A stretch of 64,000 bases of DNA. Source: Candidatus Bathyarchaeota archaeon. GTDB lineage: Archaea; Thermoproteota; Bathyarchaeia; Bathyarchaeales; Bathycorpusculaceae. The DNA lies in assembly GCA_026014685.1 (NCBI GenBank), contig JAOZHW010000003.1:35995-99994 (forward strand). Direction: 5' to 3'. The first letter of the stretch is position 1, and each line of letters starts with the position of its first letter. Positions 23,447 to 63,390 of this stretch are shown here, piece after piece. Below the pieces are notes generated by a model. The model searched no databases, was not told the DNA's origin, and was given only the letters and a program-made list of their open reading frames with translations. A program made the translations under genes and the position numbers.

Positions 23447-23511
23447 ACATTTCACCTCCAAAAAAGTCGTACGGTAGCTTTCTACTCAATGACCTAGCTT
23501 AGAACAAGCTT

Positions 23512-23528: not shown

Positions 23529-23618
23529 GTCCATAAACAGCAACAGCCAACAATACAAGCTAGCCTTAGAGATACACCTACATTACAAAAAAATAACCGA
23601 TTTTTAGATTGCTTTAGT

Positions 23619-23807: not shown

Positions 23808-23864
23808 AAATGTCACCTCCCCTAAACTATCGACCTAAAAACAGAGCCTTCAAAACAGGGCTGC

Positions 23865-24188: not shown

Positions 24189-24247
24189 AAAATTCACCTC
24201 CTACTAAACGATGGAAAAGCTAACAAGATATTTGCCGAATAACCGCT

Positions 24248-24264: not shown

Positions 24265-24438
24265 GTCGCATGGCAGTAACATACCAAGCTAGCCATAGAA
24301 ACACACTTGTAGACTTGTGCTGTTGGCGTGCTTTTTTCTTCTACTTCTCCTATACAGCCAAAAAACAACAGAGAAAACCGTCTGTTTCAGCAATTTAAAT
24401 ATCGGGCAGGGTTGAACTACTATGTTGCTGAGTGCACC

Positions 24439-39147: not shown

Positions 39148-40068
39148 TTGCATACGAAGAAAATCGGAAAGAACCTCTATCAAGTTGAATTAGACACAGG
39201 CGGCATTAAGCAACTTATCTGCAGCTACATCATAGCTGGCCCTAAACCGATGCTTGTTGAAGCAGGCCCAACCAACTCAGTGCCCAACCTTCTAAGCGGC
39301 ATACAAGAGCTGGGCATAGCGCCCCAAGCTATCGAGTACGTCGCCGTTACCCACATTCACCTTGACCACGGCGGAGGCGCAGGCACCCTACTCAAGCACC
39401 TGCCTAACGCTAAAGTCCTTGTTCACCCCCGCGGCGCACCCCACATGATTGACCCTGAACGCCTCTGGCCTTCTTCACAAGCAGTTTTGGGGTTTGTTAG
39501 CGAAATCTTCGGCAAACCTGAACCTGTTTCCAAAGACCGTGTAGTTTCCCTCACAGAAGGCACCTTTGAATTGGGTGCTGGCGGCAACCTATCAGTGCTC
39601 GAGACGGTTGGGCATGCTTCGCATAACTTGAGTTTCTTTGAGTCGTTCAATGGTGGGGTTTTTCCTGGCGATGCAGCGGGAACGTTTTTGCCTGATTGTG
39701 GGGTGGTAGTTCCGACGACTCCGCCGCCGTTCCACCTTGAAGCGGCATTAGCTTCGTTGGATAAACTCATCGCGCTTAACCCAACCGTGCTGTATTTTAG
39801 TCACTTCGGTATCGCAGACAACGCCGTGGAACGCCTCAAAGCCTACAAGGTGCAGTTGCAGTTGTGGGCAGACATCGCCGAAGCAGGCGTCAAGGCAGGT
39901 CTGAGTTTGGAGCAAATCCGCGACAACATAGTCGCCCAAGACCCCGTCATGACCCAAATCAGTGACTACGTCAAAGCTCATCAAATCTACAAGAAAACCG
40001 TGCTCGAAAACTGTGTCCGCGGCTTCATCGAATACGCCAAAACCAAACAGAGCAAGCCGCAGTCATAA
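39148..40068 (+). CDS. MBL-fold metallo-hydrolase
   Basis: THIHLDHGGGAG, GHASH, GDAAG, SHFG. Confidence 0.92.
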   Translation: MHTKKIGKNLYQVELDTGGIKQLICSYIIAGPKPMLVEAGPTNSVPNLLSGIQELGIAPQAIEYVAVTHIHLDHGGGAGTLLKHLPNAKVLVHPRGAPHMIDPERLWPSSQAVLGFVSEIFGKPEPVSKDRVVSLTEGTFELGAGGNLSVLETVGHASHNLSFFESFNGGVFPGDAAGTFLPDCGVVVPTTPPPFHLEAALASLDKLIALNPTVLYFSHFGIADNAVERLKAYKVQLQLWADIAEAGVKAGLSLEQIRDNIVAQDPVMTQISDYVKAHQIYKKTVLENCVRGFIEYAKTKQSKPQS

Positions 40069-40111
40069 ACGTTATAACATCCAACATCTTTTGTTTGGGT
40101 CGGTGAAAGGA

Positions 40112-41593
40112 ATGGGTGAAAGTGAAAGTAGACCCGCGCCTGAGCGGGTTCCCATAGAGAAAGTTAACGATTACATGTGGCAGATCCCCAAGTATAAATC
40201 CGCCATGCACGTTCCAGGCGTTATTTTTGCCAATCAGGCACTTTTAGAGAAAATGCAAACCGACCGCACACTGTGGCAATGCAGCAACGTCGCACAATTA
40301 CCAGGCATCTACAAACATGCAGTTACGTTGCCTGATGGTCATGAAGGTTACGGTTTCCCCATCGGTGGAGTCGCAGCGACGGATGCAGAAAACGGTGTGA
40401 TTAGTCCTGGCGGCGTCGGTTACGACATAAACTGTGGCGTTCGGCTTCTAGCAACTAATCTATCCGATAAAGATATCCGCCCCAAACTTGCCCCTCTATC
40501 CGAAAGCATCTTTCGCAACGTGCCCTCAGGGTTGGGCAGCAGACGTAAAGACCTAACCATATCCAACCGCGACCTAGAAGCCCTCGCCGTCGAAGGCGTC
40601 CAGTGGCTTATTGACCGTGGGTTTGGTTGGGCAGAGGACGCTAAACACTGCGAAGAAAACGGCCGCATGAAAAACGCCAACCCGGACAAGGTTTCGCAGA
40701 CTGCTAAAAACCGTGGGCTTTCACAGATTGGCACGTTAGGATCAGGTAATCACTTCCTTGAAATTCAGAAAGTGGACAAAATCTTCAACCCTAAAACCGC
40801 TAAAGCTTTCGGGTTAACCCATGAAGGGCAAGTCACGGTTATGATTCACTGTGGTAGCCGTGGATACGGACACCAAGTCTGCAGCGACTACCTCCGCGTC
40901 ATGGAGCACGCCGTCCAGAAATACAAAATCAGCCTCCCCGACCGCGAACTCGCCTGCGCTCCTGGTAACAGTCAAGAAGCCAGAGACTACCTTGAAGCCA
41001 TGGCATGCGCAGTTAACTATGCCTTCTGCAACCGTCAAGCCATCATGCACTGGGTTCGCCAGAGCTTCCAGCAAGTGTACGGGCAAGACCCCGAGAAATT
41101 CGGCTTAAAACTCGTCTACGACGTAGCTCACAACATCGCCAAAATAGAAACCCACGATGTCGGCGAAGGAATGCAGAAAAAGGTGATGGTTCACCGCAAA
41201 GGTGCAACCCGCGCTTTCCCTGCAGGCCACCCCGACGTCCCCGAAGACTACCGCAGCGAAGGACAACCAGTTCTCATTCCGGGCAGCATGGGCACCAGTT
41301 CATGGGTGCTGGTTGGGACACAGAAAGCGATGGATTTGAGTTTTGGTTCAACAGCGCACGGTGCAGGTAGAATGATGAGTCGTTCAGCAGCTAAACGGCA
41401 ATTCTGGGGTGGAGACATAAAAAGTAGCCTCGAAAAACGCGGCATTGCTGTCCGAGCGGCAAGTGCCTCAGTGTTAGCCGAGGAAGCCGACCCCGCCTAC
41501 AAGAACGTGGATATGGTTGCGGAGGTCAGCCACCAAATCGGAATCGCAACCAAAGTTGCGCGGTTGACTCCTTTGGCTGTCGTCAAAGGCTAA
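40112..41593 (+). CDS. rtcB: RNA-splicing ligase RtcB
   Basis: PDGHEGYGFPIGG, GYDINCG, GTLGSGNHF, HCGSRG, HRKGAT, PGSMG, STAHGAGR, EEADPAYK; start ATG 40112. Confidence 0.97.
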   Translation: MGESESRPAPERVPIEKVNDYMWQIPKYKSAMHVPGVIFANQALLEKMQTDRTLWQCSNVAQLPGIYKHAVTLPDGHEGYGFPIGGVAATDAENGVISPGGVGYDINCGVRLLATNLSDKDIRPKLAPLSESIFRNVPSGLGSRRKDLTISNRDLEALAVEGVQWLIDRGFGWAEDAKHCEENGRMKNANPDKVSQTAKNRGLSQIGTLGSGNHFLEIQKVDKIFNPKTAKAFGLTHEGQVTVMIHCGSRGYGHQVCSDYLRVMEHAVQKYKISLPDRELACAPGNSQEARDYLEAMACAVNYAFCNRQAIMHWVRQSFQQVYGQDPEKFGLKLVYDVAHNIAKIETHDVGEGMQKKVMVHRKGATRAFPAGHPDVPEDYRSEGQPVLIPGSMGTSSWVLVGTQKAMDLSFGSTAHGAGRMMSRSAAKRQFWGGDIKSSLEKRGIAVRAASASVLAEEADPAYKNVDMVAEVSHQIGIATKVARLTPLAVVKG

Positions 41594-47645: not shown

Positions 47646-47698
47646 GAAATCACGCGACGTCTCTGCGCAGAGGTCCCCTCCCTTATTTAAAGGGTAAA
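47646..47698 (-). repeat. Dispersed cassette, copy 3
   Basis: Reverse complement CTTTAAATAAGGGAGGGGACCTCTGCGCAGAGACGTCGCGTGATTTC, 40/47 identical to copy 1; just past the initiator tRNA 3' end, upstream of the cyclophilin. Confidence 0.85.
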
Positions 47699-48984: not shown

Positions 48985-49263
48985 CTATCGGTAAGCTATC
49001 CCCATACGTTTCATGAAATCCAAAACTTGCTCGTATTCGACGAGGAACTGCCTGCCTTTATCTGTAAGTTTGCATGAAGTTTGATCTTCAATTAAACCTA
49101 AATCACAAAGTTCACTGATGTAGGTTTTTAACCTGTCAAAAGGAACATTGATATGCACTTGAACTCGAGTTAACACTATTTTTTCTTCTTTGCTTTCAGC
49201 TTGGAGTACCGCCAAGAGGTCGCCATAGATTTTTAATCGATCTCTACGCGCGATTTTTTTCAA
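48985..49263 (-). CDS. Stand-alone winged-helix regulator (module 1)
   Basis: RRD.LKIYGDLL...NVPFDRLKTYI.EL..LGLI....LT.KG..L; start overlaps the 7TM stop by 4 bp. Confidence 0.88.
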   Translation of the reverse strand: MKKIARRDRLKIYGDLLAVLQAESKEEKIVLTRVQVHINVPFDRLKTYISELCDLGLIEDQTSCKLTDKGRQFLVEYEQVLDFMKRMGIAYR

Positions 49264-49973
49264 CTAATTCCCCTTTTGACGCAATGGAAGGACTTGCAAG
49301 ATATTATCAGAAATATCGCTAAACCCATCCAGCGAATCGCCAAAGCTGACCACCAAGCCGTCATGCTTGCATCTAAAGCATAGATTATCAAAGCATACTG
49401 GCTTACTGCGAGGAAAATGTAGCCGAAGGGTATCCACAGGGTTCCCGGGTCAGGTTTTTCAATATGACTTCTTAATGTATGAGCACAAAGATAAACAAGA
49501 CATACAAGGTTAAACACCCTTGTAAACGAGCTTGTAAGTGAATAGCTTGGTAGGTCAACGACTGGAATGTTTGTAATTACAAAGAAAGTCAACAGAGAGG
49601 CAAGTAGAAGCACCAACGTAACGTTCCAAAGTTTTCTTCTGCTGTTTTCTACGCTTTTTCTAGAGAAATAGTAGGTTACACAGAGGAACACAAAAGCGTA
49701 GCTTCTTAGGATAAGTTGAAAGTATATTGTTCCGTTACCAAACAAGTACGGTTGATAATATACCAGAGCGGATAGTGCGTAGGTTGCTCCGAGGAATCCA
49801 AATCCAAGTGGAAGTCCAAGGTAGCGGCTTTCCTTGGTGAATTGGTATGGTTTAACCATGAATCTGACAAGAATAAAGCATATCACTGCTGAGGTAACTT
49901 CGTAGGCAATTCGGAATGTTTGTAACTCATAAGGATCCATTGACCAATTCACCGAGTTTTGTGTTTTTAACAA
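49260..49973 (-). CDS. 7-TM membrane protein (module 1)
   Basis: Seven hydrophobic helices; KPY..T.E.RYLGLPLGFGFLG, HTLRSH...DP.T.WIP. Confidence 0.85.
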   Translation of the reverse strand: MLKTQNSVNWSMDPYELQTFRIAYEVTSAVICFILVRFMVKPYQFTKESRYLGLPLGFGFLGATYALSALVYYQPYLFGNGTIYFQLILRSYAFVFLCVTYYFSRKSVENSRRKLWNVTLVLLLASLLTFFVITNIPVVDLPSYSLTSSFTRVFNLVCLVYLCAHTLRSHIEKPDPGTLWIPFGYIFLAVSQYALIIYALDASMTAWWSALAIRWMGLAIFLIISCKSFHCVKRGIS

Positions 49974-50001
49974 TCTTGTCTGGTTTAACTAATATTTTGC
50001 C

Positions 50002-50016
50002 CTCACGATAGGTGAG
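50002..50016. promoter_or_regulatory. Palindromic operator CTCAC-GATAG-GTGAG, copy a
   Basis: Identical 17-mer CTCACGATAGGTGAGTG also at 51340 and 54231; 29 nt upstream of the 49973 start. Confidence 0.8.
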
Positions 50017-50057
50017 TGCCGCAAATGTTATCACCATCCACCTCAACAAAAAAACCT

Positions 50058-50336
50058 TCATTGATATGCTAAACCCATACGTTTCATGAAATCAAGTACA
50101 CTTTCGTATTCCTTTAGGTACTGTTTGCCTTTTTCCGTTAGCTTCAATGAATTTTCATCCTCAATTAAGCCCAATCCACCCAGCTCAGTAATGTACGTTT
50201 TTAAGCGGTCAAAGGGAACGTTTAATCTCACTTGAACGCGTGTTAGGACAACTTTGTCTTTGCCTGTTTCCTCGTTTAGTATGGAGAGGAGGTCTCCGTA
50301 AATTTTTAGTTTATCCCTACGAGCGATCCGCTTCAT
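50058..50336 (-). CDS. Stand-alone winged-helix regulator (module 2)
   Basis: Close paralog of 48985-49263 with identical NVPFDRLKTYI segment. Confidence 0.88.
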   Translation of the reverse strand: MKRIARRDKLKIYGDLLSILNEETGKDKVVLTRVQVRLNVPFDRLKTYITELGGLGLIEDENSLKLTEKGKQYLKEYESVLDFMKRMGLAYQ

Positions 50337-51006
50337 CGATTCCTCCCCTCTTTGTTGCCCTATAGAATGTTCGATACGCCACGTACAGAAAGACCGCTAA
50401 AGCGATAAGGCGGGCTGTTAAGCCACCTACAAAAGCGACCCCGTAAAGATAGTTCTCGTCTGCAGCCCTGATTAACTGTGAATACTGACTTACCGAGAGC
50501 ATTATAAATCCTAGCGGTATCCAAATCGTGGTTGGATCTAGAGATTTTAGGTGACTTCTAAGCGTATGGACGCAAATGTACGCTAAGCAAACTAAGGCAA
50601 GTATTCTGAGGAAGATGCCAAAGCCTGCAGTTATCCCCAAAGCCAAGAGGGGCGCGCTAAACAGCCACAAAAACCAAGTTGTTAAGCCGACTATTATTGC
50701 GCTAAGAATAATTACCCAGATGAAGCGGCTGTTTTTTGAGGGTTTTTTTGAGAAATAATATGTGAACGCGAGAAACACAAATGCGAATGTTCTCATGACA
50801 ACTGAGACAGTTCCCAACCCATTTATCGGGTAAATGATTCCTATGGCTAGGATTGTTTCTGCGACACCAAGAAAGCCGAATCCGAGTGGTAAGCCAAGGT
50901 ATCTTTCTTCTCTTGTGAGGCCATAGGGCTTTATCATGTACCTTAAGAGAATAAAGTACATTACTGCTGACGCTATCTCGATTGCAAACCTAGGAGCCTC
51001 ATACAT
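50317..51006 (-). CDS. 7-TM membrane protein (module 2)
   Basis: Paralog of 49260-49973; overlaps the wHTH start by 20 bp. Confidence 0.85.
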   Translation of the reverse strand: MYEAPRFAIEIASAVMYFILLRYMIKPYGLTREERYLGLPLGFGFLGVAETILAIGIIYPINGLGTVSVVMRTFAFVFLAFTYYFSKKPSKNSRFIWVIILSAIIVGLTTWFLWLFSAPLLALGITAGFGIFLRILALVCLAYICVHTLRSHLKSLDPTTIWIPLGFIMLSVSQYSQLIRAADENYLYGVAFVGGLTARLIALAVFLYVAYRTFYRATKRGGIDEADRS

Positions 51007-51339
51007 GGTGCTAATTTATTTAAGGTTTGACGCTTATTTTGTTTTTCCCTAATTGAAACTTTTCTGTATTTAATTCATTGATTATTTGGTTTACGCACAT
51101 TAAGTGAGTTAGGGCATACTAAACTGCCTTTGAAAAACGTAAAATTTTCCTCAGAATTCAGCGTGTGTTGCCTTATCATTTAATGCTTAACTATTTTTGT
51201 AAGGTCGGCGTTTGTTCATTAAAAAATATGTCACATCGCTTATAGTAATTGTTGGTTTTTGGGAGTCAATGTCTGCTTAGCGTTTCTTTTTTGTCCTGTC
51301 AGTGGTCGGTTGGAGGATTTGGAGGATTATTTAACTTTC

Positions 51340-51354
51340 CTCACGATAGGTGAG
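51340..51354. promoter_or_regulatory. Palindromic operator, copy b
   Basis: Ends 6 nt before TTATAA (51361), upstream of the 51409 start. Confidence 0.85.
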
Positions 51355-51408
51355 TGAGTCTTATAACTGCTTTTCGTTAACTTGCATGAATACAAAGGAG
51401 AAATAAAA

Positions 51409-54102
51409 ATGCAAAATGAAAATCAATCTGCAAAAAAGAAAATATACTTTTCAATCGCAGCTCTTCTAATGCTGTCAATGGCTATTCCATTGACTACCCT
51501 ACAAACAGCTAGTGCTCACACACCAGCATGGCAAATCGTTTCATATGCATACATTTCTGCAGCTCCAAGCCCAGTTGGCGTAGGCCAAGAAGTCTACGTA
51601 TTCGTATGGGTTGACACACCCTTCGCAGGCGCATTAGTAACAAACGACATTCGACGGCACAACTATAAACTTGTAATCACAGACCCAGACGGCCAAAACT
51701 CAACTCAAACTTGGGCTAGAGTTGAAGACACCACAGGTGTCCAAGCATACTCATTCACACCAAACAAAGTCGGAAACTACACATTGTCATTCTACTATCC
51801 AGGTGAAAAATACGTCTGGAACACCGTTAACACTCCAGGACTTTCAGCAGCAAACGCTCTCTTCGAAAACGACACATTCCTCCCAGCTTCAGCAATAAGA
51901 ACCCTCGAAGTAACCGAAGAACAAGTACCACCACCTTCAAGCGGCGCTCCACTTCCAACTGAATACTGGACACGACCTATAAACGGCCAAAACAGTAACT
52001 GGTACGTAATTTCCTCTAACTGGCTAAACGCCCCCTACATCCGCTCAGGCGCTACTTCAACTGGCGGTGCAGGATACGGCAGATTCCAAAAAGACGGCGC
52101 AGGCCCAGAAACATCCCACATAATGTGGACTAAACCCATACAATGGGGCGGTGTCGTCGGCGGAACCAACACCATGAACTTAGGTGAAGGCTACTACACA
52201 GGCAGCTCCTACAACCCAAGATTCGCAAACGCAATCATCATGCACGGAACTCTCTTCTACCAAGAGCCATGGGGCAACTCAGGCGGAGGCGGCGACTACG
52301 TTTCAGTAGACCTGCTAACAGGTAAAGAGAACTGGCGCATAAATACAACCGCTACAGGCGTAAACCTAACACCAAGCTTTGGCTACCTATACGGCTTTGA
52401 AGACGGCAACCAGCATGGTGTATTACCAAACGGTTTACTCATCGCATCCACAACAGCTTACACTGGTCTTGGCACAGTTTGGAGAGCATATGATGCCCGA
52501 ACAGGTGTACTAACAAACTTCAACCTAACCAACGTTCCCTCAGGCTCAGCAGCATCAGCCACACTGGCAGCTAACTCCGCAAACGGTGCATCAGCAGCAG
52601 GTCCAAGAGGCGAATACCTAATCTACTCATTAACCAACCTCGGCACCACAGCAAACCCAAGCTACTATCTAATGCAGTGGAACTCTTCCAAGTATCATCA
52701 ACTCGCAGCAGGCCAAATCGGCGCAGGCAACTGGTATCCATCTTCAGCAAACCCAGGATTCAACGCAACCGATGTCCGTATGTACGACTGGAATGTATCC
52801 CTGCCAACTGTTAAAGGGCAAGGTTGGACGATCTTTAGAGACGCTATCGTCGGTGATCGTATACTCCTCGTCCAAGGTAGCATGGGAACAGGTCCAAGAA
52901 CAGAAGGCTTCGGCGCAAACATAACTGCAGTAAGCGTTAACCCAGACAGCAAAGGCCAAATCCTCTGGACAAAGTACTACGCACCAGCTCCTGGAAACGT
53001 AACTAGAGCAATCATAGCAGTCGACGCAGAAGCAGGCACATTTGTCACAGAAGACAAAGAAACCCTACAACTAAACGGTTTCAGTCTCGCCAACGGAAAC
53101 CACGTTTGGACAGCAGAAACTCCAGTCGTTGAATGGGATACTCTTCGAAGAGACACCCTTAGCGCGTATGGTAAACTATACGCTGCAGGCTACGACGGCA
53201 TAGTTTACTGCTATGACGACGCAACAGGCAAATTACTATGGACTTATGGCAACGGCGGTCCAGGTAACTCCACTTTCGCAGGCTTAGACACAGTCTACGG
53301 ACACTACCCAGTATTCATCGACGTCATCGCAGACGGCAAAGTCTACATCGGAACAACCGAGCACTCACCCGACCAACCACTCTACAAAGGCTCAATATAC
53401 GCATGCATGAACGCAACCACCGGCGAAGAAATCTGGACCCTAACAGGTATGGGCTCCGGTATGTACGTCGGACAAAACGACCTCGTCGCAGACGGCTACT
53501 TCGTATTCCTAAACATCTACGACATGCAGATCTACACACTCGGCAAAGGTCCAAGTAAACTAACCGTTGAAGCACCTCTCGCCGCAGTAACTGAAGGTCA
53601 AAGCATAGTCATCCGCGGAACCATAACCGACATCTCAGCTGGCACAAAACAGAACGAGCAAGCAGCTAGATTCCCCAACGGCGTTCCATGTGTCTCTGAC
53701 TCAAGCATGCAAGGTTGGATGGAATACGTCTACATGCAGCAAGCATGCCCAACAGACGTAACAGGCGTCCAAATCAACCTCGCAGTCTTAGACGCTAACG
53801 GCAACTACCGAAACATCGGCACAACCACAAGTGACGGAAGCGGAACCTACAGCTACCAATGGAAACCAGACATCCCGGGCAAATACGTAGTAGTTGCAAC
53901 CTTTGCAGGCACAAACGCATACTATGGTTCATCAGCCCAAACTGCTTTTGCAGTTGACGAAGCCCCAGCAACTCCAACTCCACAAGCCACACAACCTCCA
54001 TCAGCAGCTGACCTCTACATCCTCCCCGGCATTGCAGGCATAATCGTCACCATTATCTTGGTCGGCGCAGCCATAATACTCCTGCAAAGAAAACGCCCAT
54101 AA
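51409..54102 (+). CDS. Large surface protein: Ig-like + PQQ-like beta-propeller + Ig-like + C-terminal anchor (paralog 1)
   Basis: Signal peptide, repeated D..TG...W motifs, Pro/Thr linker, TM, RKRP; AAGGAG Shine-Dalgarno before ATG 51409. Confidence 0.85.
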   Translation: MQNENQSAKKKIYFSIAALLMLSMAIPLTTLQTASAHTPAWQIVSYAYISAAPSPVGVGQEVYVFVWVDTPFAGALVTNDIRRHNYKLVITDPDGQNSTQTWARVEDTTGVQAYSFTPNKVGNYTLSFYYPGEKYVWNTVNTPGLSAANALFENDTFLPASAIRTLEVTEEQVPPPSSGAPLPTEYWTRPINGQNSNWYVISSNWLNAPYIRSGATSTGGAGYGRFQKDGAGPETSHIMWTKPIQWGGVVGGTNTMNLGEGYYTGSSYNPRFANAIIMHGTLFYQEPWGNSGGGGDYVSVDLLTGKENWRINTTATGVNLTPSFGYLYGFEDGNQHGVLPNGLLIASTTAYTGLGTVWRAYDARTGVLTNFNLTNVPSGSAASATLAANSANGASAAGPRGEYLIYSLTNLGTTANPSYYLMQWNSSKYHQLAAGQIGAGNWYPSSANPGFNATDVRMYDWNVSLPTVKGQGWTIFRDAIVGDRILLVQGSMGTGPRTEGFGANITAVSVNPDSKGQILWTKYYAPAPGNVTRAIIAVDAEAGTFVTEDKETLQLNGFSLANGNHVWTAETPVVEWDTLRRDTLSAYGKLYAAGYDGIVYCYDDATGKLLWTYGNGGPGNSTFAGLDTVYGHYPVFIDVIADGKVYIGTTEHSPDQPLYKGSIYACMNATTGEEIWTLTGMGSGMYVGQNDLVADGYFVFLNIYDMQIYTLGKGPSKLTVEAPLAAVTEGQSIVIRGTITDISAGTKQNEQAARFPNGVPCVSDSSMQGWMEYVYMQQACPTDVTGVQINLAVLDANGNYRNIGTTTSDGSGTYSYQWKPDIPGKYVVVATFAGTNAYYGSSAQTAFAVDEAPATPTPQATQPPSAADLYILPGIAGIIVTIILVGAAIILLQRKRP

Positions 54103-54230
54103 ATCAAGAAAAGACTAAAATCCTCTCTCTTTCTTCTTTTTTTAGTTGCAAGCAGCCCAAAAATGAATTTTAGGGCATTCTGCAGGGTTAATGTGGTTTT
54201 TTAGGGTTTTTTGTGGCTTCTTTAACTTTG

Positions 54231-54245
54231 CTCACGATAGGTGAG
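54231..54245. promoter_or_regulatory. Palindromic operator, copy c
   Basis: Ends 6 nt before TTATTA (54252), the same spacing as copy b. Confidence 0.85.
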
Positions 54246-54305
54246 TGAATCTTATTAGCCGTTAAGCGCCTCTAAGGTAGTCACAAAATAGGAGAAAGAA
54301 AAAAC

Positions 54306-57017
54306 ATGAAAACTCAAAAAACATTAGCCTTAATTGCGTTTGTACTAATCGCAAGCATGGCCATAACAGCAATTTCAGCGCCATTCGCAAAAGCACAAAC
54401 TTCAGGTCAAATGAAATCCTTTGCATACCTCATCGTCGAACCCAATCCAGTCGGCGTAGGCCAAACAACCTACGTCGCCATGATGGTTGATGTGCCACTA
54501 CCTGGATCGTCCGAAGCAAACGACATCAGAAGACATAACTACAAACTAACCATTACCGCACCAGACGGTAAAGTAACGACAAAAACATGGGCAGTAGTTG
54601 CAGATACTACAGGTGTCCAGTCAACTGCATTCACACCCGATCAAGTAGGTAACTACACCTTCTTCTTCGAATACCCAAACCAAAACTACACATGGACCAC
54701 AGGAACCTACCTTGTTAACACAGCATACACTGGCGTTATCTTCCTAGGTTGCAACGCAACAGCAACTCTCACTGTCCAAGAAGATCCAGTTCCATACACC
54801 GCAAACTCACCTCTTCCAACTGAATACTGGACAAGACCCATCTACGGCGAAGACTCAAACTGGTACGTAGTCGGTTCACATTGGCTCGGCAGTGGCAGTT
54901 CCTATACTGCAGCTAGCAGCAACTACTTTGGTTCATTCCAACAAGGCGGTATGAACCTCTGGCAGCAAGGTGGAACCGGCCCAGATAGTCCACACATTGT
55001 CTGGACAACTCCACTTGAAGACGGAGGCGTCGTCGGCGGAATCAACACTGGTATCGAGGGAGCAACCTTCTACTCAGGCGGTTCATATGAAGGCAGATTC
55101 CAAAACGCACTCATAGTCAACGGCAGATTATACTACAAAGCACCCCTAAGCGACCAAGTCAGCGTTACTGCGACTGGCGGAGGCGCTTACATATGCAGAG
55201 ACTTACGTACAGGCGAAATCATCTGGACAAATGACAACATAAACCCAACATTCGGCGAACTCTACTGCTATGAATCACCCAACCAACACGGAGTAATTCC
55301 AAACGGCTACCTATGGCAAGCAGTAACCCCTTCAGGGTCAGTAACAAACCAAACATGGATTGCTTGGGACGCTCTAACCGGTAAATGGCTATTTAACATC
55401 ACCGACGTTCCAGTAACCTCAGCAACCACAACCCCCAACATGTCAAGTGCAATCGCTTACACAAATCAAGGTGAAATTGTCAAATACATCCTAAGTTACA
55501 ACCGAACAGCAAAGACTGGTTGGTTGGCGCTTTGGAATTGGACTTGTGCCCAGGGAGTACCACCAACTACGACCGGTACTGGTGGTGTTCAAGCAGGCAT
55601 GAATGGAACAGGCACCAACTTCCTACAATTCCGACCCGTCGGCAAAGTCATCAATGCAAGCACCGCATACTCATGGAACGTCACCATAACAGCAGACTTA
55701 ACCGGTACGCTTTCATCACAAGTTCCGACAATCCAGTATGTACTACCAGGAGATATACTGCTTGGAACAACGCCATCTTTAGCACCAGGTGTTCTATCCT
55801 TAAGAGGTACAGTTGACCCGTACCAAGTATGGACACTAAGCTTAGCTGAAGACAACAAAGGCGCACTACTCTGGAAGAAATCATACAATGCACCATCAGG
55901 TAACATGACACTCAACCTCGGCCCAATCGATCCAGTAAACCGCGTTTGGACAACAACCACAGCAGAAGACATGCAATACCAAGGCTACAGTCTAGCTAAC
56001 GGAAACAAACTATGGGAAACCGACATGAAAGTCCGACCAATGCAATTCTTCAGCAGCGGCTCAGGTGCAGGTCAAAGATGTGTAACCGCATACGGAAACC
56101 TCTATACACAAGGCTTCGGCGGCGAAATCTTCTGCATCGACACAAACACAGGCAAAGTCGTCTGGAAATATAACAACACAAGCGGCGGCGTCGACACATC
56201 TTGGGGCTTAATCCCAACATTCATCGGCGTAATCGCTGACGGAAAAGTCTACGCCTTCAACAACGAACACTCACCAAACAGCCCGCTATACAAAGGCTAC
56301 AGCATCTATTGCATCAACGCAACTACTGGCGAAGAAATCTACAAGATGCTCTCTTGGTCAGGCCAAACAGGCGGCCAAGGTCTAAGCACACAGATTCTAG
56401 CAGACGGAACATTAGTCTACTACAACTACTACGACAACCAACTCTACGCAATCGCTAAAGGTCCAAGCCAAACCACAGTAACAGCAGGACCGAAAGTAAC
56501 CGAGCTAGGTCAAAAAGTCCTAGTTGAAGGTACAGTAATAGACATCTCAGCAGGCACAAAACAAACCGAGCAAGCAGCAAGATTCCCAAGCGGTGTTCCA
56601 GCAGTCTCTGACGCAAGCCAAGCAGCCTGGATGGAATACGTCTATATGGACCAGCCACGTCCAACAGACGCTACAGGTGTTCCAGTGACAGTTAGCGTAG
56701 TCGACCCCAACGGCAACTACTACGTTGTCGGCACAGCTACAAGTGACTCCAACGGCGCTTTCAAGGTTGTATTCACTCCAGAAGTACCAGGAGTATACAC
56801 CGTGATGGCAAACTTTGCAGGCTCCGCTTCATACTATGGTTCACATGCAACAACAGCCGTCTACGTTGACGAAGCACACGCAACAGCAACTCCACAAGCA
56901 ACAAAAGAACCAACAGCAGCTGACTTATACTTCGTACCCGCAATTGCAGGGCTATTCGTCTTAGTCATCATAGTACTAGCATTGCTAGTAGTTTTGATGA
57001 TGAAAAAACGTCCATAA
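54306..57017 (+). CDS. Large surface beta-propeller protein (paralog 2)
   Basis: Shares PVGVGQ, DIRRHNYKL.IT.PDG, LPTEYWTRPI, EHSP, ISAGTKQ.EQAARFP with paralog 1. Confidence 0.85.
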   Translation: MKTQKTLALIAFVLIASMAITAISAPFAKAQTSGQMKSFAYLIVEPNPVGVGQTTYVAMMVDVPLPGSSEANDIRRHNYKLTITAPDGKVTTKTWAVVADTTGVQSTAFTPDQVGNYTFFFEYPNQNYTWTTGTYLVNTAYTGVIFLGCNATATLTVQEDPVPYTANSPLPTEYWTRPIYGEDSNWYVVGSHWLGSGSSYTAASSNYFGSFQQGGMNLWQQGGTGPDSPHIVWTTPLEDGGVVGGINTGIEGATFYSGGSYEGRFQNALIVNGRLYYKAPLSDQVSVTATGGGAYICRDLRTGEIIWTNDNINPTFGELYCYESPNQHGVIPNGYLWQAVTPSGSVTNQTWIAWDALTGKWLFNITDVPVTSATTTPNMSSAIAYTNQGEIVKYILSYNRTAKTGWLALWNWTCAQGVPPTTTGTGGVQAGMNGTGTNFLQFRPVGKVINASTAYSWNVTITADLTGTLSSQVPTIQYVLPGDILLGTTPSLAPGVLSLRGTVDPYQVWTLSLAEDNKGALLWKKSYNAPSGNMTLNLGPIDPVNRVWTTTTAEDMQYQGYSLANGNKLWETDMKVRPMQFFSSGSGAGQRCVTAYGNLYTQGFGGEIFCIDTNTGKVVWKYNNTSGGVDTSWGLIPTFIGVIADGKVYAFNNEHSPNSPLYKGYSIYCINATTGEEIYKMLSWSGQTGGQGLSTQILADGTLVYYNYYDNQLYAIAKGPSQTTVTAGPKVTELGQKVLVEGTVIDISAGTKQTEQAARFPSGVPAVSDASQAAWMEYVYMDQPRPTDATGVPVTVSVVDPNGNYYVVGTATSDSNGAFKVVFTPEVPGVYTVMANFAGSASYYGSHATTAVYVDEAHATATPQATKEPTAADLYFVPAIAGLFVLVIIVLALLVVLMMKKRP

Positions 57018-57848: not shown

Positions 57849-58082
57849 GTAGCGCCTGTGCTTGTTCGACAGTTAAATATTGGTGGACAAGTTTTATATG
57901 GGAGACAGGTGTTGTGGTGTCGTTTAGTGACGTATGATGAGGGATTGCGTTCATACAAGGCGATTGCCTTCATTGAAAGCTTAACGAAAACATATTGTAA
58001 ATTAGACGCAACCCCGCAGCGAAACGTTCTATCAAAAACAAAAAACCCCAGAATACTCTCTAAATGTTATGGTGAAAATGTT

Positions 58083-59081
58083 ATGGATAAACTAAAATTT
58101 GCAATACCAAAAGGTTCATTAGAAAAAGCAACGGCGGAATTCTTCTCTAAATCAGGCTTCAAAATCGGCGCTTCAGACCGAACATACCGCCCCAGCATAA
58201 ACGACCCCCAAATTGAAATGAAAGTTCTGCGTCCCCAAGAAATCCCCGTGTTCGTCAGCGAAGGTCTCCAAGACATAGGCATAACAGGCGAAGATTGGGT
58301 GAAAGAAAACCGCGCAGATGTCGAAATCCTCCAAAACCTCGAGTACGGTAAAATCCGTCTCGTCATCGCGGTCCCCAAAAGTGTTCCTGAAGGCACTACA
58401 CTGGGGCAATTCATGGAGTCCGTTTGGGCGCAGGGCAGAAACTTCCGCGTCAGCACCGAATACCTAAACATCGCCTCAGAATTCCTCAAAAGCACCCCCG
58501 AATACCAGAAACGATTCGGCAATAGCGAGCCGATGCTGGTTACGCCTTGGTGGAGAAAAGGCGATAACCCCCGCGCCAAAATCTTCCTCTCATTTGGGGC
58601 AACCGAGGCTAAGCCACCAGAAAACAGCGACTGCATCATGGACGTCACCGAAACAGGCACCACAATAGAAGCCAACAACCTCCGCATCATCCAAACAGTC
58701 CTCACTTCCTCAGCGGTTCTAATCGCCAACAAAAAAGCCTTGGAAGACCCTGAAAAACGCGAAAAAATCTTCGACATAGTCGCACTCCTCAAAGGCGTCG
58801 TGGATGGCTCTAAGCGGATACACATCTTTGTTAACGTCAAAAAAGAAAACCTCCAAAAGCTTCTAACAGAGCTGCCAGCGCTGAAGAACCCGACGATTTC
58901 TCCACTCGCAGACGACGCCTGGGTGGGCGTAAATACAGTCATAGAGAAGGACTGCTTCATCGGGTTGCTGCCGAAAATCCGCAAGTTAGCACAGGGCTTG
59001 GTGGTGTTTGAACCGCGGCAGGTGTTGGCGCTGGATGAGATTGAACGGAGAAAAGAAGGTCAATGCAAAAAGGCCTCATAA
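58083..59081 (+). CDS. hisG: ATP phosphoribosyltransferase (long form)
   Basis: FAIPKGSL, RPQEIP, DIGITGED, SFGATEA.P, DVTETG.T; start ATG 58083. Confidence 0.96.
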   Translation: MDKLKFAIPKGSLEKATAEFFSKSGFKIGASDRTYRPSINDPQIEMKVLRPQEIPVFVSEGLQDIGITGEDWVKENRADVEILQNLEYGKIRLVIAVPKSVPEGTTLGQFMESVWAQGRNFRVSTEYLNIASEFLKSTPEYQKRFGNSEPMLVTPWWRKGDNPRAKIFLSFGATEAKPPENSDCIMDVTETGTTIEANNLRIIQTVLTSSAVLIANKKALEDPEKREKIFDIVALLKGVVDGSKRIHIFVNVKKENLQKLLTELPALKNPTISPLADDAWVGVNTVIEKDCFIGLLPKIRKLAQGLVVFEPRQVLALDEIERRKEGQCKKAS

Positions 59082-60361
59082 AGGTTTGGGAATCAAAACA
59101 GTTACCCTCTGACTGGTTTAAGCGCCAGCAGGTGGACCAAAAAGCCACTGCTGACCTTGAAGCCAACGTCAAAACCATCCTAAACCAAGTTAAAACCGAA
59201 GGCGACAAGGCACTCATAGAGTTCGCGCAGAAATTCGACAAAGCCCAACTCACAGCAGCCACGCTCAAAGCCAGCCCCGAAGAAATTAAAGACGCCTACA
59301 CCCAAGTTACCAAAGAACAAGTCGCCGCCATCGAGTTCATGAAGCAACGCGTAAGCGTCTTCCAAAAGCAACTGCTCGCAAACACCGAAGTGAAAGCCTT
59401 CAACGAGGGCATCATGGTTCAAACCGTGCTACGCCCCATCGAAAGCGTCGGCTGCTACGTTCCCGGTGGACAAGCCGCTTACCCAAGCACAGTTGTGATG
59501 ACTGCCTTGGTAGCCAAGATTGCTGGTGTACCCAGGATTGTTGTCTGTTCGCCTTCTGATGCAGCGGGCAAAGTTAACCCGCTGGTATTGGTTGCCTCAG
59601 ATATCTGCGGCGTAGATGAGGTCTACAAGGTTGGCGGAGCTCAAGCGATCGCGGCATTGGCGTACGGCACAGAAACTATAGCGCCAGTCCGTAAAATCGT
59701 TGGGCCAGGCAGCAAATACGTAACCATGGCCAAAGTTCTCGTATCTCAAGATGTTGCCATCGACATGCCCGCAGGTCCCAGTGAAGTTCTTATCTTAGCC
59801 GACCAATATGCCGACGCACGCTTGATCGCCGCTGACATGATCTCGCAAGCTGAGCACGGCACAGACAGCGTCGCCGCCCTGATAACTCCATCAGCGAAAC
59901 TGGCTCATGAAGTCCAAGACAACCTCTTCAAAATGGCTGCCTCTGCGCCTCGTGCTGAAAAAGTCGTCGATTCCTTATCCAAATACGGCTTCATAATCGT
60001 CTGCACAGACATTGACGAAGCAGTAAAACTCACAAACCAATTCGCCGCGGAACACCTTGAAGTCATGGCTAACGACGCTCAGAAACTCTCCGAGAAACTC
60101 GTCGCAGGCCTCATCCTCATCGGACCAAACAGCCCCGTCGCACTCAGCGACTACGCAAGCGGAACCAACCATGTGCTTCCCACCGGCGGCTTCGCACAGG
60201 CATTCTCAGGTTTATCCGCGATTGATTTCATGCGTCGAGTCAGCATAGCCGAGTGTTCACGTGAGGCACTGGAAAAAGTTAAAGCCCAAATCAAAGTCTT
60301 AACTGACACCGAAAACCTCCCCAATCACTACAGAGCCATAGAGGTACGGTTCCAAAAATGA
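59063..60361 (+). CDS. hisD: Histidinol dehydrogenase
   Basis: GCYVPGG, GGAQAIAALAYG, DMPAGPSE, QAEH, EHLE, DY.SGTNHVLPT. Confidence 0.97.
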   Translation: MQKGLIKVWESKQLPSDWFKRQQVDQKATADLEANVKTILNQVKTEGDKALIEFAQKFDKAQLTAATLKASPEEIKDAYTQVTKEQVAAIEFMKQRVSVFQKQLLANTEVKAFNEGIMVQTVLRPIESVGCYVPGGQAAYPSTVVMTALVAKIAGVPRIVVCSPSDAAGKVNPLVLVASDICGVDEVYKVGGAQAIAALAYGTETIAPVRKIVGPGSKYVTMAKVLVSQDVAIDMPAGPSEVLILADQYADARLIAADMISQAEHGTDSVAALITPSAKLAHEVQDNLFKMAASAPRAEKVVDSLSKYGFIIVCTDIDEAVKLTNQFAAEHLEVMANDAQKLSEKLVAGLILIGPNSPVALSDYASGTNHVLPTGGFAQAFSGLSAIDFMRRVSIAECSREALEKVKAQIKVLTDTENLPNHYRAIEVRFQK

Positions 60362-61476
60362 GCGCATCCTACCAAACCTGGTTAAAGCAGAAGCTGGCGA
60401 AACTGCAAGCTATAGACTGCTACTCTGCAGGCGTCACGCCCGAAGGTTTAGCGGAGCAACTCGGCGTTGACCTCTCAAAAATCGTCAAACTAAACTTTAA
60501 CGAAAACCTCTTCGTTGACCGCGCCCGCCAAACCGCGTTGATGAAGGAACTCGCCGAAGAAATCGACTTGCGCATGTACCCCGAAGACGAAGAAGCCAAA
60601 CTCCGAGACAAACTCACAGACTATATAGGTGTCCCAGCGGATTACTTGGCGATTAGCAATGCAGGTGACGAATTAATCGACCGCATAGTACGCCTCTTCA
60701 TCGAAAAAGGCGAGGCGGCGGTTTCGTTTGAACCGACGTTTGCGATTCCACGATTGTGCGTGAAGCGCCAAGAAGGCGCATACGTATCGGTACCGTTAAA
60801 GGGCGATTTCCAACTTGACGTCGAGGGCATGCTCAAAGCATTTTCGGACAAAACCCGCTTGCTCTATCTCTGCTCACCCAACAATCCCACATCCAACCAA
60901 ATGAACCCTGACGACGTTGAGAAACTCGTCAAAGCCTTCCCTGGAATCGTCATCCTAGACGAAGCTTATGGCGAATTCGCTGACTACAGCTTTGTACCAC
61001 GCATTCGAGAGTTCCCGAACATGGTTATTCTGCGGACGTTTTCCAAGGCGTTTGGTTTGGCGATGCTACGGTTGGGTTACGCCGTTGCAAACCCAGAATT
61101 AGCAAAAGTGATACGCGAAAAAGCGCCTCTTCCCTATCCAGTTTCTGGCTTCACCATACGCATGGGCATCAAGATGCTCGAAAACATGGAAATAATGCGG
61201 AACGCTGTTTCTGCGTTGGTGGCGGAGCGGGGAAAATTCATAAAAGCACTCAATCAAATAGAAGGAGTACAAGCATTCCCCTCCCAAGCAGATTTCGTCC
61301 TAATCAACACCAAAAAACCCGCAGAAGAAGTCTACACGGCTCTACTCAAACGGGGCATTATGCTAAAGAAATGGGGTAAACTACTCCAATACGACAACTG
61401 CTTCCGCGTCACAGTGGGGTTGCCTGAAATGAACGCCAAACTAATCGAAGCACTAAAACAAATTCAAAGTGACTAA
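60358..61476 (+). CDS. hisC: Histidinol-phosphate aminotransferase
   Basis: KLNFNEN, YP, SPNNPT, LDEAY.EF, LRTFSKAFGLA.LRLGY. Confidence 0.96.
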   Translation: MSASYQTWLKQKLAKLQAIDCYSAGVTPEGLAEQLGVDLSKIVKLNFNENLFVDRARQTALMKELAEEIDLRMYPEDEEAKLRDKLTDYIGVPADYLAISNAGDELIDRIVRLFIEKGEAAVSFEPTFAIPRLCVKRQEGAYVSVPLKGDFQLDVEGMLKAFSDKTRLLYLCSPNNPTSNQMNPDDVEKLVKAFPGIVILDEAYGEFADYSFVPRIREFPNMVILRTFSKAFGLAMLRLGYAVANPELAKVIREKAPLPYPVSGFTIRMGIKMLENMEIMRNAVSALVAERGKFIKALNQIEGVQAFPSQADFVLINTKKPAEEVYTALLKRGIMLKKWGKLLQYDNCFRVTVGLPEMNAKLIEALKQIQSD

Positions 61477-61478
61477 AC

Positions 61479-62054
61479 ATGAGGACAGAAGAGGTTTACC
61501 GAAAAACCAAAGAAACCGAAGTAAAAGTCAAAGTCAACATAGACGGCGAAGGTAAAGCCCAAGTAGCCACAAACGTGCCGTTTTTAGACCACATGCTCAC
61601 CTCACTTGCCACACATAGCCTAATCGACATATCCGCTTCCGTTCAGGGCGACTTGGTGCACCACATGGTTGAAGACCTCGCGCTCGGCTTAGGCGAAGCC
61701 CTAAACAAAGCGCTAGGCACACGCGAAGGCATAGCCCGCTTCGGCAACGCAGCCGCCCCCATGGACGAATCACTGGCATTCGCTGCTGTTGATTTGGTCA
61801 AACGCCCCTACTTCAAAATAGACCTCAAACTCAGAGGCAAAAAAGTAGAAAACATGCCCACCGAAGACATCGTCCACTTCTATGAATCCCTCACACAAAC
61901 CCTACAAGCAAACGTGCACATCTTTGTTGAATACGGCGGCAACGACCACCACAAAGCAGAAGCCGCCACCAAAGCCTTTGCCCTCTCACTTCGCCAAGCC
62001 ACCACCATCGACCCCCGACGCAAAGGCGTACCCAGCTCAAAGGGCGTAATCTGA
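61479..62054 (+). CDS. hisB: Imidazoleglycerol-phosphate dehydratase
   Basis: R.TKET, FLDHML, HH.VED, PMDESL, NDHH.AEA. Confidence 0.97.
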   Translation: MRTEEVYRKTKETEVKVKVNIDGEGKAQVATNVPFLDHMLTSLATHSLIDISASVQGDLVHHMVEDLALGLGEALNKALGTREGIARFGNAAAPMDESLAFAAVDLVKRPYFKIDLKLRGKKVENMPTEDIVHFYESLTQTLQANVHIFVEYGGNDHHKAEAATKAFALSLRQATTIDPRRKGVPSSKGVI

Positions 62055-62659
62055 TGGCAAACGCAGTCATATTCGACTACGGCGTCGGAAACCTACTGAG
62101 CCTCAAAACGGCGCTTGAAAAAGCAGGCTTAACCGCCACCATAGGCACCACCTCCGCGGATTTAGCTAAAGCAGACGCCATCGCCCTGCCCGGTGTCGGA
62201 AGCTTCACAGCATCACTGGAAAGACTCGACAAAGTTAAAGACACCCTGCAAACCAAAGTTTCAGAGGGCACTCCGCTTTTAGGCATCTGTTTGGGGATGC
62301 AGTTGTTCTTTGAATCCAGCCAGGAAGGCCCAGGCAGCGGTTTATCATTCTTCAAAGGCACCGTCAAACAGTTACCTAGCACAGTCAAGGTGCCTCATAT
62401 GGGCTGGAACACACTCAACATCACACGCCCCAACGAACTCTTTGACGGCATCGCAGAAGGCACTTATGTCTACTTTGTGCACTCTCTTTACCCCGCCCCC
62501 GCAGATCCCGAAATCGTAGTCACAAAAACCGAGTACGGCACAACCTTTACCTCAGCAGTCGCCCAAAAAAACATCTACGGCACCCAATTCCACCCTGAAA
62601 AATCAGGAGACGCCGGGTTGGCGATTCTCAAAAACTTTGCTAAAACAGTGGTAAGGTGA
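62054..62659 (+). CDS. hisH: Imidazole glycerol phosphate synthase glutaminase subunit
   Basis: DYGVGNL.S, LPGVGSF, GICLGMQ, VPHMGWN, YFVHS, QFHPEKSG. Confidence 0.97.
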   Translation: MANAVIFDYGVGNLLSLKTALEKAGLTATIGTTSADLAKADAIALPGVGSFTASLERLDKVKDTLQTKVSEGTPLLGICLGMQLFFESSQEGPGSGLSFFKGTVKQLPSTVKVPHMGWNTLNITRPNELFDGIAEGTYVYFVHSLYPAPADPEIVVTKTEYGTTFTSAVAQKNIYGTQFHPEKSGDAGLAILKNFAKTVVR

Positions 62660-63390
62660 ATGTTATGCAGCTTATTCCCGCAATTGACCTTATGAGCGGC
62701 AAAATCGTTCGCTTAACCCGCGGGGAAGCCGAAACCGCTAAAAGCTACGAAGCCAAATTCGGTACCCCCCTCCAAGCCGCAGAGCGATGGAAAAGTGAGG
62801 GCGCAGGCAAACTTCACATCATCGACCTCGACGCCGCATTCAGCATAGGCGACAACCGAGCCGTCATTGCTGAAATCGCAAAAAACGTCTCGCTCCCCAT
62901 CCAAGTTGGCGGAGGTATTCGAAGCTATGAAACCGCAGAGAAACTTCTCAAAACAGGTATCGCCCAAGTTATACTCGGTTCTTTAGCGTTCAGCAACCCA
63001 GAGGTTATCCCGAAAATCCTCAATAGGTTCGGTAGAGACTCCGTCATTGTCGCCTTAGACAACCGGGATGGGCGTATCATGGTGGAGGGTTGGCAAACTG
63101 AAACTCCTCTGACCGTAGACGAAGCGCTGGAGAAGTACACGCAACTCGGTGTCCAAACCTTCCTGATAACTTCCATCGCTCAGGATGGCATGCTTAGCGG
63201 CCCAGACCTGCAAACCCTCAACGCAGCAACCCTGTTCCCTGAAGCTAAAATCATCGCAGCAGGCGGAATCGGCTCCATCGGAGACCTAACCGCACTAAAA
63301 CAGATCGGGTGTGAAGGGGCAGTGATCGGGAAAGCCCTATATGAGGGGCGTTTCACGTTAAAAGAAGCCTTAGCAAAGATAGGAGTTTGA
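62656..63390 (+). CDS. hisA: ProFAR isomerase
   Basis: IPAIDL..G..VRL, LHIIDLD.A, QVGGGIR, DG.LSGPD, GGI. ATG 62665 is an alternative start. Confidence 0.96.
   Translation: MNVMQLIPAIDLMSGKIVRLTRGEAETAKSYEAKFGTPLQAAERWKSEGAGKLHIIDLDAAFSIGDNRAVIAEIAKNVSLPIQVGGGIRSYETAEKLLKTGIAQVILGSLAFSNPEVIPKILNRFGRDSVIVALDNRDGRIMVEGWQTETPLTVDEALEKYTQLGVQTFLITSIAQDGMLSGPDLQTLNAATLFPEAKIIAAGGIGSIGDLTALKQIGCEGAVIGKALYEGRFTLKEALAKIGV

Follow-up and report, generated by a model that had tools for sequence, protein, structure and literature searches.

In archaea, the sites of several transcriptional activators lie beside the B recognition element (BRE) and the TATA box, as is known for Ptr2 in Methanocaldococcus, TFB-RF1 in Pyrococcus, EarA in Methanococcus, and the GvpE upstream activating sequence (UAS) in Halobacterium. 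The 64-kb stretch of Bathyarchaeia DNA analyzed here (contig JAOZHW010000003.1; hereafter the window, in which positions count from the first letter) carries a comparable element, the 15-bp dyad CTCAC-GATAG-GTGAG, in front of PQQ-propeller genes and of operons that pair a seven-transmembrane (7TM) protein with a winged helix-turn-helix (wHTH) protein. It shares with those systems the placement of a dyad or short site directly upstream of BRE/TATA at a fixed distance and a core promoter that departs from consensus; as with the GvpE UAS, one site can serve divergent promoters. Unlike them, it is linked to a 92-amino-acid (aa) HTH_45, Sso10a-like wHTH rather than to an Lrp/AsnC, TrmB, or GvpE-type protein, its motif is unrelated, and its activating role is a prediction.

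The dyad is a conserved, nonrandom, and functionally constrained element of fixed geometry that is tied to propeller and 7TM-wHTH promoters. We further consider it likely to be the operator of the cluster's own wHTH protein, which would thus be autoregulated and probably activating. Autoregulated two-gene modules are also known from bacteria, i.e., the LytTR regulatory systems (HdrRM, BrsRM) and the ECF sigma/anti-sigma pairs. The cluster resembles these pairs of membrane inhibitor and transcription factor by analogy only: the gene of its small DNA-binding protein overlaps that of a polytopic membrane protein, the two are presumably cotranscribed, the operon has its own operator, and the presumed targets are surface or secreted proteins. 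It differs in that there is no homology, the membrane protein gene comes first, and an interaction of the two proteins is presumed.

In Bathyarchaeia of the Bathy-6 group, a family of secreted PQQ-domain (pfam13360) proteins is expanded to 24 to 46 copies per genome, with a proposed role in lignin redox chemistry, acting on lignin or humics, according to the relevant passages of PMC11697101. As far as those passages describe it, this family matches the target genes studied here in signal peptide, PQQ_2 propeller, Ig-like (immunoglobulin-like) domains, and tandem arrays, and one of our comparative genomes (L052) is named Bathy6-F18_MillA, in keeping with the naming in that source. The passages of PMC11697101 that matched our search contain nothing on transcriptional regulation of the PQQ family. 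A search of a literature library found no mention of the 15-mer in either orientation or of PF14947, and no description of the motif or of PQQ-propeller family regulation.

Three identical copies of the dyad in the window

The 17-mer CTCACGATAGGTGAGTG, which holds the dyad, occurs exactly at 50002-50018, 51340-51356, and 54231-54247 (0.07 expected from shuffles of the window), and no further match with up to three mismatches exists in the 64 kb. Exact matching thus bears out a previous sequence-only reading of this DNA, which had noted the three identical copies. It had also placed 6 nt between the palindrome ends (51354; 54245) and TTATAA (51361) or TTATTA (54252), as can be read off the sequence, and TTTAACTTT before the second and third copies, where it is indeed present one base ahead (51330-51338 and 54221-54229). 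From the palindrome to octamer CTTATAAC or CTTATTAG, the distance is 5 nt. An A/T-rich TATA-like octamer lies 5 nt downstream of all three copies, and the distances from octamer start to start codon are 49, 55, and 56 nt. The targets are two secreted PQQ-propeller genes and one 7TM-wHTH operon. The promoter features are as follows.

49989..49996, minus strand: TATA-like octamer AATATTAG, 5 nt from the operator and 56 nt before ATG 49940
50002..50016, minus strand: operator of the 7TM_1-wHTH_1 operon promoter; exact 17-mer; same arrangement on the 7TM side elsewhere
51094..51108, minus strand: decayed operator of the 7TM_2-wHTH_2 operon, CTCAC-TTAAT-GTGCG; one arm mismatch; positional orthology with locus L007
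51340..51354, plus strand: operator of the propeller gene 1 promoter, CTCAC-GATAG-GTGAG; exact 17-mer; fits the class I consensus (see below)
51355-51359, plus strand: linker TGAGT after the propeller gene 1 operator, read from the sequence
51360..51367, plus strand: TATA-like octamer CTTATAAC, a putative TATA box, 5 nt past the operator and 49 nt before ATG 51409
54231..54245, plus strand: operator of the propeller gene 2 promoter, followed by linker TGAAT; exact 17-mer, read from the sequence
54251..54258, plus strand: TATA-like octamer CTTATTAG, 55 nt before ATG 54306

The 50002 copy reads CTCAC-CTATC-GTGAG-GGCAA-AATATTAG on the minus strand, i.e., CTCACCTATCGTGAG-GGCAA-AATATTAG; the 5-nt offset is the same, and the spacer runs opposite to that of the propeller promoters. 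The latter two are identical at 33/35 core bases and share a 63-nt stretch at 79% identity. Relaxing the palindrome to two mismatches yielded 11 sites versus 20.9 expected and no added promoter site in the window. Elsewhere in the window, a perfect palindrome with other arms but operator-like architecture (CTTAC-AGGCT-GTAAG, 7600-7614) occupies the intergenic space after an open reading frame (ORF) ending at 7526; its occurrence is within chance.

The dyad marks propeller and 7TM-wHTH promoters across Bathyarchaeia

For comparison, 52 loci (895 kb) around wHTH homologues were collected from species-representative genomes, nearly all of them labeled Bathyarchaeota or Bathyarchaeia. They contain 75 perfect CTCAC-N5-GTGAG sites, distributed over 38/52 loci, where composition predicts 0.6. 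A perfect site lies no more than 200 nt upstream of 52/118 propeller ORFs (44%) and 35/63 7TM ORFs (56%), versus 11/555 other ORFs (2%); with one mismatch allowed, the counts rise to 66, 46, and 13, respectively. This enrichment upstream of propeller genes and 7TM-wHTH operons matches the regulon with feedback on the sensor that the sequence-only reading had put forward. The other ORFs that bear a site mostly encode secreted or membrane proteins (Ig-like, AIM24, DUF6159-SHOCT, DUF4386) and a further HTH_45 protein, and most of them fall in a single clade (L008, L031, L034). In these three loci (L008, positions 9180-15700), the dyad occurs in the opposite orientation beside TTAAATA boxes, and the genes that follow specify an AIM24-family protein, a DUF6159-SHOCT membrane protein, a small secreted Ig-like protein, and a second, longer HTH_45 protein. 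Since the dyads of these loci precede different genes, regulon content varies by clade.

Sites whose arms had no more than one mismatch were lined up on a CTTATTAG-like octamer, with offsets of 2 to 9 nt allowed. The offset was 5 nt in 79/80 sites, which define the class I consensus TTTTTTgtA-CTCAC-GATAG-GTGAG-TGaGg-CTTATTAG. Information content amounts to about 2 bits in the arms, on which the sites were selected, about 1 bit per position in the spacer, 0.9 to 1.8 bits in the octamer, and about 0.1 bit in the outer flanks. Exact CTTATTAG occurs 68 times in related loci, 43 times with a class I dyad at offset 5 and 6 more times with a variant dyad; motif-less propeller genes and other genes have boxes of the TTTATATA or TTTAAATA type instead. 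Thus, CTTATTAG is no general promoter word in these genomes, and the unit is dyad-N5(TGAGT)-CTTATTAG. Start codons in the comparative loci usually lie 48 to 61 nt past the octamer, a position that suggests that the octamer is the TATA box. If so, the dyad would span about -50 to -36 from the predicted transcription start, with the linker at the BRE position. The dyad would then stand directly upstream of TATA at a fixed distance, as Ptr2-type sites do.

Most loci have a single dyad, placed where a propeller gene and a 7TM-wHTH operon diverge. About 10 sites have, on the 7TM side as well, a good TATA-like box (AATATTAG, ATTATTAG, or GATATTAG) at a distance of 5 nt, and most of these sites are bidirectional, with the symmetric layout TATA-5-[15]-5-TATA. 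An operator so placed between two divergent TATA-like boxes is upstream of both predicted transcription starts. The spacer itself is asymmetric. In about 80% of aligned sites, the sequence facing the propeller TATA-like box is GATAG, GATAA, or AATAG, and the one facing the 7TM gene is CTATC. The 50002 copy obeys this rule; one clade (L008, L013, L031, L034, L038, L055) has the opposite orientation.

To explain the conserved spacer, the sequence-only reading had offered recent copying or asymmetric contacts. The first of these does not hold, because the paralogous proteins are only 42 to 44% identical. The 17-mer is unchanged in the window despite paralogue divergence down to 42% aa identity in the propellers, 44% in the 7TM proteins, and 72% in the wHTH proteins. 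The second is favored: as the spacer retains about 1 bit per position across genomes, selection on it through asymmetric contacts or DNA shape seems the better explanation. That reading had also named a finding that would speak against an operator, i.e., duplicated promoter DNA with arms that are not conserved. On the contrary, orthologous and paralogous promoters from about 40 other Bathyarchaeia genomes keep the arms amid randomized flanks. Since arms, spacer, and TATA-like box persist between random flanks, this is not recently copied DNA, and the selective conservation of the arms together with the paralogue identity led us to discard recent duplication.

The candidate regulator and its gene cluster

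The genes of the cluster are as follows.

48985..49263, minus strand: wHTH_1, 92 aa, Pfam HTH_45; same recognition segment as wHTH_2
49260..49940, minus strand: 7TM_1, MASE3-like membrane protein, 226 aa from ATG 49940 or 237 aa from TTG 49973
50058..50336, minus strand: wHTH_2, 92 aa, HTH_45, candidate operator-binding regulator; recognition segment NVPFDRLKTY
50317..51006, minus strand: 7TM_2, polytopic membrane protein of 229 aa, 44% identical to 7TM_1; its last 20 nt run into wHTH_2
51409..54102, plus strand: propeller gene 1; signal peptide, Ig-like domains, PQQ_2 beta-propeller, C-terminal transmembrane (TM) anchor
54306..57017, plus strand: propeller gene 2; paralogue of gene 1, 42% aa identity

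Both wHTH proteins match Pfam HTH_45 (PF14947) with 43.2 and 42.5 bits (42.5 for wHTH_2; threshold, 25.5). HTH_45 is their only Pfam match, which sets them apart from Ptr2, an Lrp/AsnC protein. The AlphaFold model (mean predicted local distance difference test [pLDDT] score, 76.5) has helices at residues 6-24, 31-38, 42-54, and 68-86 and a wing at 57-66; thus, the predicted monomer shows the Sso10a-type fold, a wHTH with a long C-terminal helix that in Sso10a is used for dimerization. With residues 42-54 as the predicted recognition helix, Asp43 is its second residue. The surrounding NVPFDRLK segment is nearly invariant among homologues.

The best fold matches are AF1382, Sso10a (1R7J; TM-score, 0.70; root mean square deviation, 2.5 Å), Sso10a-2, and MarR-family wHTH cores. 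The Sso10a/Sul10a proteins (PDB 1R7J, 4HW0) and AF1382 (PDB 2QVO) are alike in size and topology (TM-scores, 0.63 to 0.70; identity, 21 to 24%). Unlike Sso10a, the window protein falls below the curated cutoff of NCBIfam Sso10a_fam (NF053610; 34.9 versus 60 bits) and is tied to one 15-bp operator and a membrane partner. The resemblance to MarR is one of fold only (TM-scores, 0.58 to 0.72 over the wHTH core): MarR proteins are about 140 aa long, with N- and C-terminal helices forming the dimer interface, and the protein studied here has 92 aa and no MarR Pfam match. A PDB sequence search with the wHTH returned nothing significant, the best relevant entry being AF1382 at E=0.95.

Each 7TM gene overlaps its wHTH gene, 7TM_2/wHTH_2 by 20 nt (50317-50336) and 7TM_1/wHTH_1 by 4 nt (49260-49263), and they therefore form two tandem two-gene operons. 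These overlaps, together with the operator (up to one mismatch) upstream of 46/63 7TM genes, are what a cotranscribed, autoregulated module would be expected to show. 7TM_1 aligns over about 190 residues with MASE3 of bacterial histidine kinases and diguanylate cyclases, just below the Pfam cutoff (PF17159; 29.8 versus 31 bits), and matches the N-terminal 200 positions, the membrane module, of NCBIfam MASE3_PAS_HK (NF047874); 7TM_2 has no match, and a few 7TM homologues have a precomputed PF17159 match. Unlike MASE3 proteins, the 7TM protein stands alone at 220 to 237 aa, without a kinase, PAS, or GGDEF output domain. Among the best 120 homologues listed (200 to 236 aa), no further Pfam domain was found. 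For 7TM_1, the start at ATG 49940 is more likely than that at TTG 49973; in the near-identical contig L001, gene calls start a 226-aa 7TM protein 61 nt past the motif. A 44-aa ORF is also called there (L001, 10276-10410; window 49925-50060, minus strand), between wHTH_2 and 7TM_1 and spanning the operator and the TATA-like box; it is probably a gene-calling artifact.

The propeller proteins are both about 900 aa long, with a signal peptide, Ig-like domains, a PQQ_2 beta-propeller, and a C-terminal membrane anchor. Homologues are named Candidatus Bathyarchaeota or Bathyarchaeia, like the organism of the window, and near-identical contigs with the same arrangement come from several hot-spring and sediment metagenomes, the only kinds of DNA run found to hold the locus. 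Identity to the window among top database matches is 70 to 80% for the wHTH, 45 to 60% for the 7TM protein, and 30 to 70% for the propellers. The greater divergence of the 7TM proteins would fit sensors that diversify on a fixed DNA code.

Regulator and operator change together

The sequence-only reading had assigned the palindrome to the wHTH, an assignment that gains support from covariation between recognition helix and half-site. A search with the L015 protein uncovered a subfamily with Thr, Val, Ile, Met, or Asn in place of Asp43. Wherever DNA of a member was at hand, the promoter has another dyad, with the 5-nt offset, the linker, and the octamer unchanged. Upstream of the 7TM partner, we scored class I, CTCAC-N5-GTGAG, and class II, YGRAC-N5-GTYCR. 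Class I accompanies 58/72 Asp43 wHTHs (PF-D-RLK) and 0/9 non-Asp ones, the latter carrying Thr, Val, or Gly; class II, with up to one mismatch, accompanies 8/9 non-Asp (7 perfect) and 2/72 Asp43 wHTHs. Fisher tests of the covariation, in which shared ancestry was not corrected for, gave 3e-6 and 1e-8. The seven perfect class II sites have the same offset as class I. The following class II dyads were found.

L087, L090: TGAAC-CATAG-GTTCA-tgagt-CTTATTAG
L089, L091: TGAAC-CATAG-GTTCA with variant octamers
L088: CGAAC-CACAG-GTCCA-tgagt-CTTATTAA
L015: CGAAC-CATAA-GTCCG
L059: CGGAC-GATAG-GTCCA

L087 has four class II sites before propeller genes. A metagenome scan for the non-Asp subfamily with a generic peptide pattern returned mostly canonical loci and one Thr variant, L059. 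Both regulator/operator classes occur within one genome in two cases (L025 with L051; L032 with L044). Since the recognition-helix residue and the outer three half-site bases change together while spacer, linker, and octamer stay constant, the palindrome appears to be the wHTH site. Such concerted change is what direct readout would predict, and it is the main support for the assignment.

A further group of wHTH variants has Ser for Pro (NVS[FY]DRLKKY; L043, L056 (1704), L081, L083). Next to these, at the customary distance from CTTATTAG, stand the altered sites CTCAC-GCTTA-AGGAG, TGCAC-TACAG-AGGAG, TGCAT-GATGG-GAGAG, and TGTAC-GATAG-GAGAG. No clean dyad is apparent from them, and the group may represent a third specificity class or decaying sites.

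A decayed operator upstream of the second 7TM gene

The degenerate CGCAC-ATTAA-GTGAG that the sequence-only reading had located upstream of 7TM_2 is present at 51094-51108. By number alone it is not significant: the window has four sites with up to one mismatch versus 1.48 expected, and 8/100 shuffles gave at least four. The alignment with L007, the closest other species, whose wHTH is 91% identical to that of the window, tells more. L007 has a perfect operator at the position of the 51094 site, both lying 87 to 88 nt before the 7TM start (in the window, 87 nt before ATG 51006), and on this positional ground the 51094 site is identified as a true, decayed operator homologue. In L007, one perfect dyad serves the propeller gene and 7TM_2 alike. 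A 246-nt insertion in the divergent intergenic region of the window, where 7TM_2 and propeller gene 1 face apart (51109-51354, versus L007 9130-9350), duplicates the operator, with the perfect copy at 51340 and the decayed one at 51094. The operator left to 7TM_2 is possibly weakened.

Mechanism and rival explanations

We propose that a wHTH dimer sits on the dyad with its recognition helices in successive major grooves, as the half-site centers are 10 bp apart, and that Asp43, at the N-terminal end of each helix, contributes to reading the three outer bases in either arm. CTCACGATAGGTGAG is the sequence that such a dimer would prefer over scrambled arms. With a regulon-specific core promoter (the TGAGT linker and CTTATTAG) 5 bp downstream, the operator would abut or overlap the BRE position. 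From there, the regulator would control the promoters of large secreted, membrane-anchored PQQ-propeller/Ig proteins as well as its own 7TM-wHTH operons, in many genomes from one shared operator between divergent TATA-like boxes. Most likely, it would activate by helping TBP/TFB onto the nonconsensus core promoter, and its cotranslated MASE3-like 7TM partner would probably set its activity upon sensing a membrane or extracellular cue, a role that we infer.

The same regulator and operator could also serve repression, with the wHTH occluding the BRE and blocking TFB/TBP until a 7TM signal releases it, under negative autoregulation. The right arm and linker do occupy the place where a BRE would be, MarR-family repressors are among the best fold matches, and many archaeal wHTH regulators (MarR-like, TrmB-like) are known to repress by occlusion. 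However, archaeal repressor sites typically overlap TATA or the start, and this dyad is strictly upstream, fixed to one nucleotide in 79/80 sites; the core TGAGT-CTTATTAG is also unlike the TTTATATA/TTTAAATA boxes that precede other genes and the propeller genes without the motif, as would suit an activator-dependent promoter. On balance, we regard pure repression as unlikely, and we lean, without much assurance, toward an activator rather than a repressor or a protein with a dual role. Another factor, such as a TFB/TBP paralogue or an unlinked regulator, might instead bind the palindrome and leave the wHTH genes as mere members of the regulon. Linker and octamer are conserved under either arm class, which means that part of the composite element has a reader other than the specificity residue. 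The arms, though, shift in step with one wHTH recognition-helix residue at several promoters per genome, a 5+5+5 dyad suits a dimeric wHTH, and no other protein of the cluster is nearly as conserved as the wHTH, all of which makes an outside binder quite improbable.

We give almost no credence to the two explanations that take the operator away altogether. Functionless promoter DNA hitchhiking on gene duplication would account for propeller promoters that are alike over 63 nt in front of tandem paralogues, but not for 33/35 conserved core promoter bases beside proteins that are 42% identical, for arms of about 2 bits next to flanks of about 0.1 bit over about 80 sites in about 40 genomes, or for a third copy that is inverted and in a different promoter. 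It is about as hard to believe that the element works as a hairpin, be it a terminator, an attenuator, a 5' untranslated region (5'-UTR) structure, or cruciform DNA. The element can fold, with a stem of 5 bp around a 5-nt loop (DNA folding energy, -3.6 to -4.2 kcal/mol; z-score, -3 to -5), and the 54231 copy lies 130 nt past the stop codon of propeller gene 1. That stem is short and weak, with no T-run after it; the conserved loop would be unpaired; and in bidirectional loci the element, between two divergent boxes, would not be transcribed. An intrinsic terminator or structured RNA was discarded on account of the 5-bp stem, the lack of an Rfam match, and the position upstream of TATA-like boxes, which holds for all three complete window copies.

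Several points weigh against the operator model that we prefer. All comparative loci were picked for a wHTH homologue, and enrichment was measured inside those neighborhoods, where about 40% of the propeller genes are without the motif. The non-Asp wHTHs make up one or two clades; hence, the covariation reflects few independent events. The case for activation is drawn from position and the nonconsensus core promoter, and a search of sequencing runs found no RNA run holding the locus. Lastly, the Sso10a proteins, solved relatives of equal size and topology, are described in PMC4941522 as architectural chromatin proteins that bend or bridge DNA, not as specific regulators.

Other features of the window

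Two copies of a 46-nt repeat, 85% identical (19411-19456 and 47647-47692), immediately precede minus-strand genes, the first a 622-aa ORF (start 19389) and the second a cyclophilin gene (start 47574). On that strand, a TATA-like CTTTAAATAAGGGAGGGGA comes first, followed by a short GC-rich palindrome, and the repeat may serve as shared promoter and leader, or as a regulatory site of another kind. On the minus strand at 22000-24230, small paralogous genes (about 84 to 110 aa) in tandem array encode KGG-repeat proteins similar to stress-induced proteins, with the motifs GRKGGE and GSKGG and the ending EEAGHRGGQRVRRLI; the array has a period of about 366 nt and strongly negative GC and AT skews. 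Other genes of the window (431-2869, 10781-13210, 24328-25923, 39962-41593, 57858-63390) include those for a CO dehydrogenase/prismane-family protein with a 4Fe-4S domain, a heavy-metal P-type ATPase, a B12-binding radical SAM enzyme, and RtcB, as well as a histidine-biosynthesis operon starting with hisG. None of them has the motif.

Outlook

To our knowledge, this would be the first operator with sequence specificity to be proposed for HTH_45/Sso10a-like proteins, of which the characterized members are regarded as chromatin proteins. More speculatively, the modules may amount to an undescribed archaeal signaling device, in which a stand-alone MASE3-like receptor without enzymatic output directly controls an Sso10a-like wHTH (e.g., by membrane tethering) that activates dyad-N5-TGAGT-CTTATTAG. 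Such modules, split by one residue into at least two orthogonal codes (Asp/GTGAG; Thr or Val/GTYCA), would be master switches of the PQQ-propeller family; we offer this tentatively, as a possibility that we doubt more than we trust.

A class-wide positioned operator with an assignable regulator would permit regulon prediction in any metagenome-assembled genome by a simple motif scan. Regulator and sensor could be expressed heterologously to look for the inducing signal, and the specificity switch, one residue versus three bases, is easy to test. Class-wide conservation, a dedicated composite promoter, and an apparent one-residue switch creating orthogonal paralogous regulons add to the interest of the system. 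Bathyarchaeia are among the most abundant uncultured archaea of anoxic sediments, and the secreted PQQ-propeller family is the largest gene expansion reported in them; the operator described here would bear on its control.

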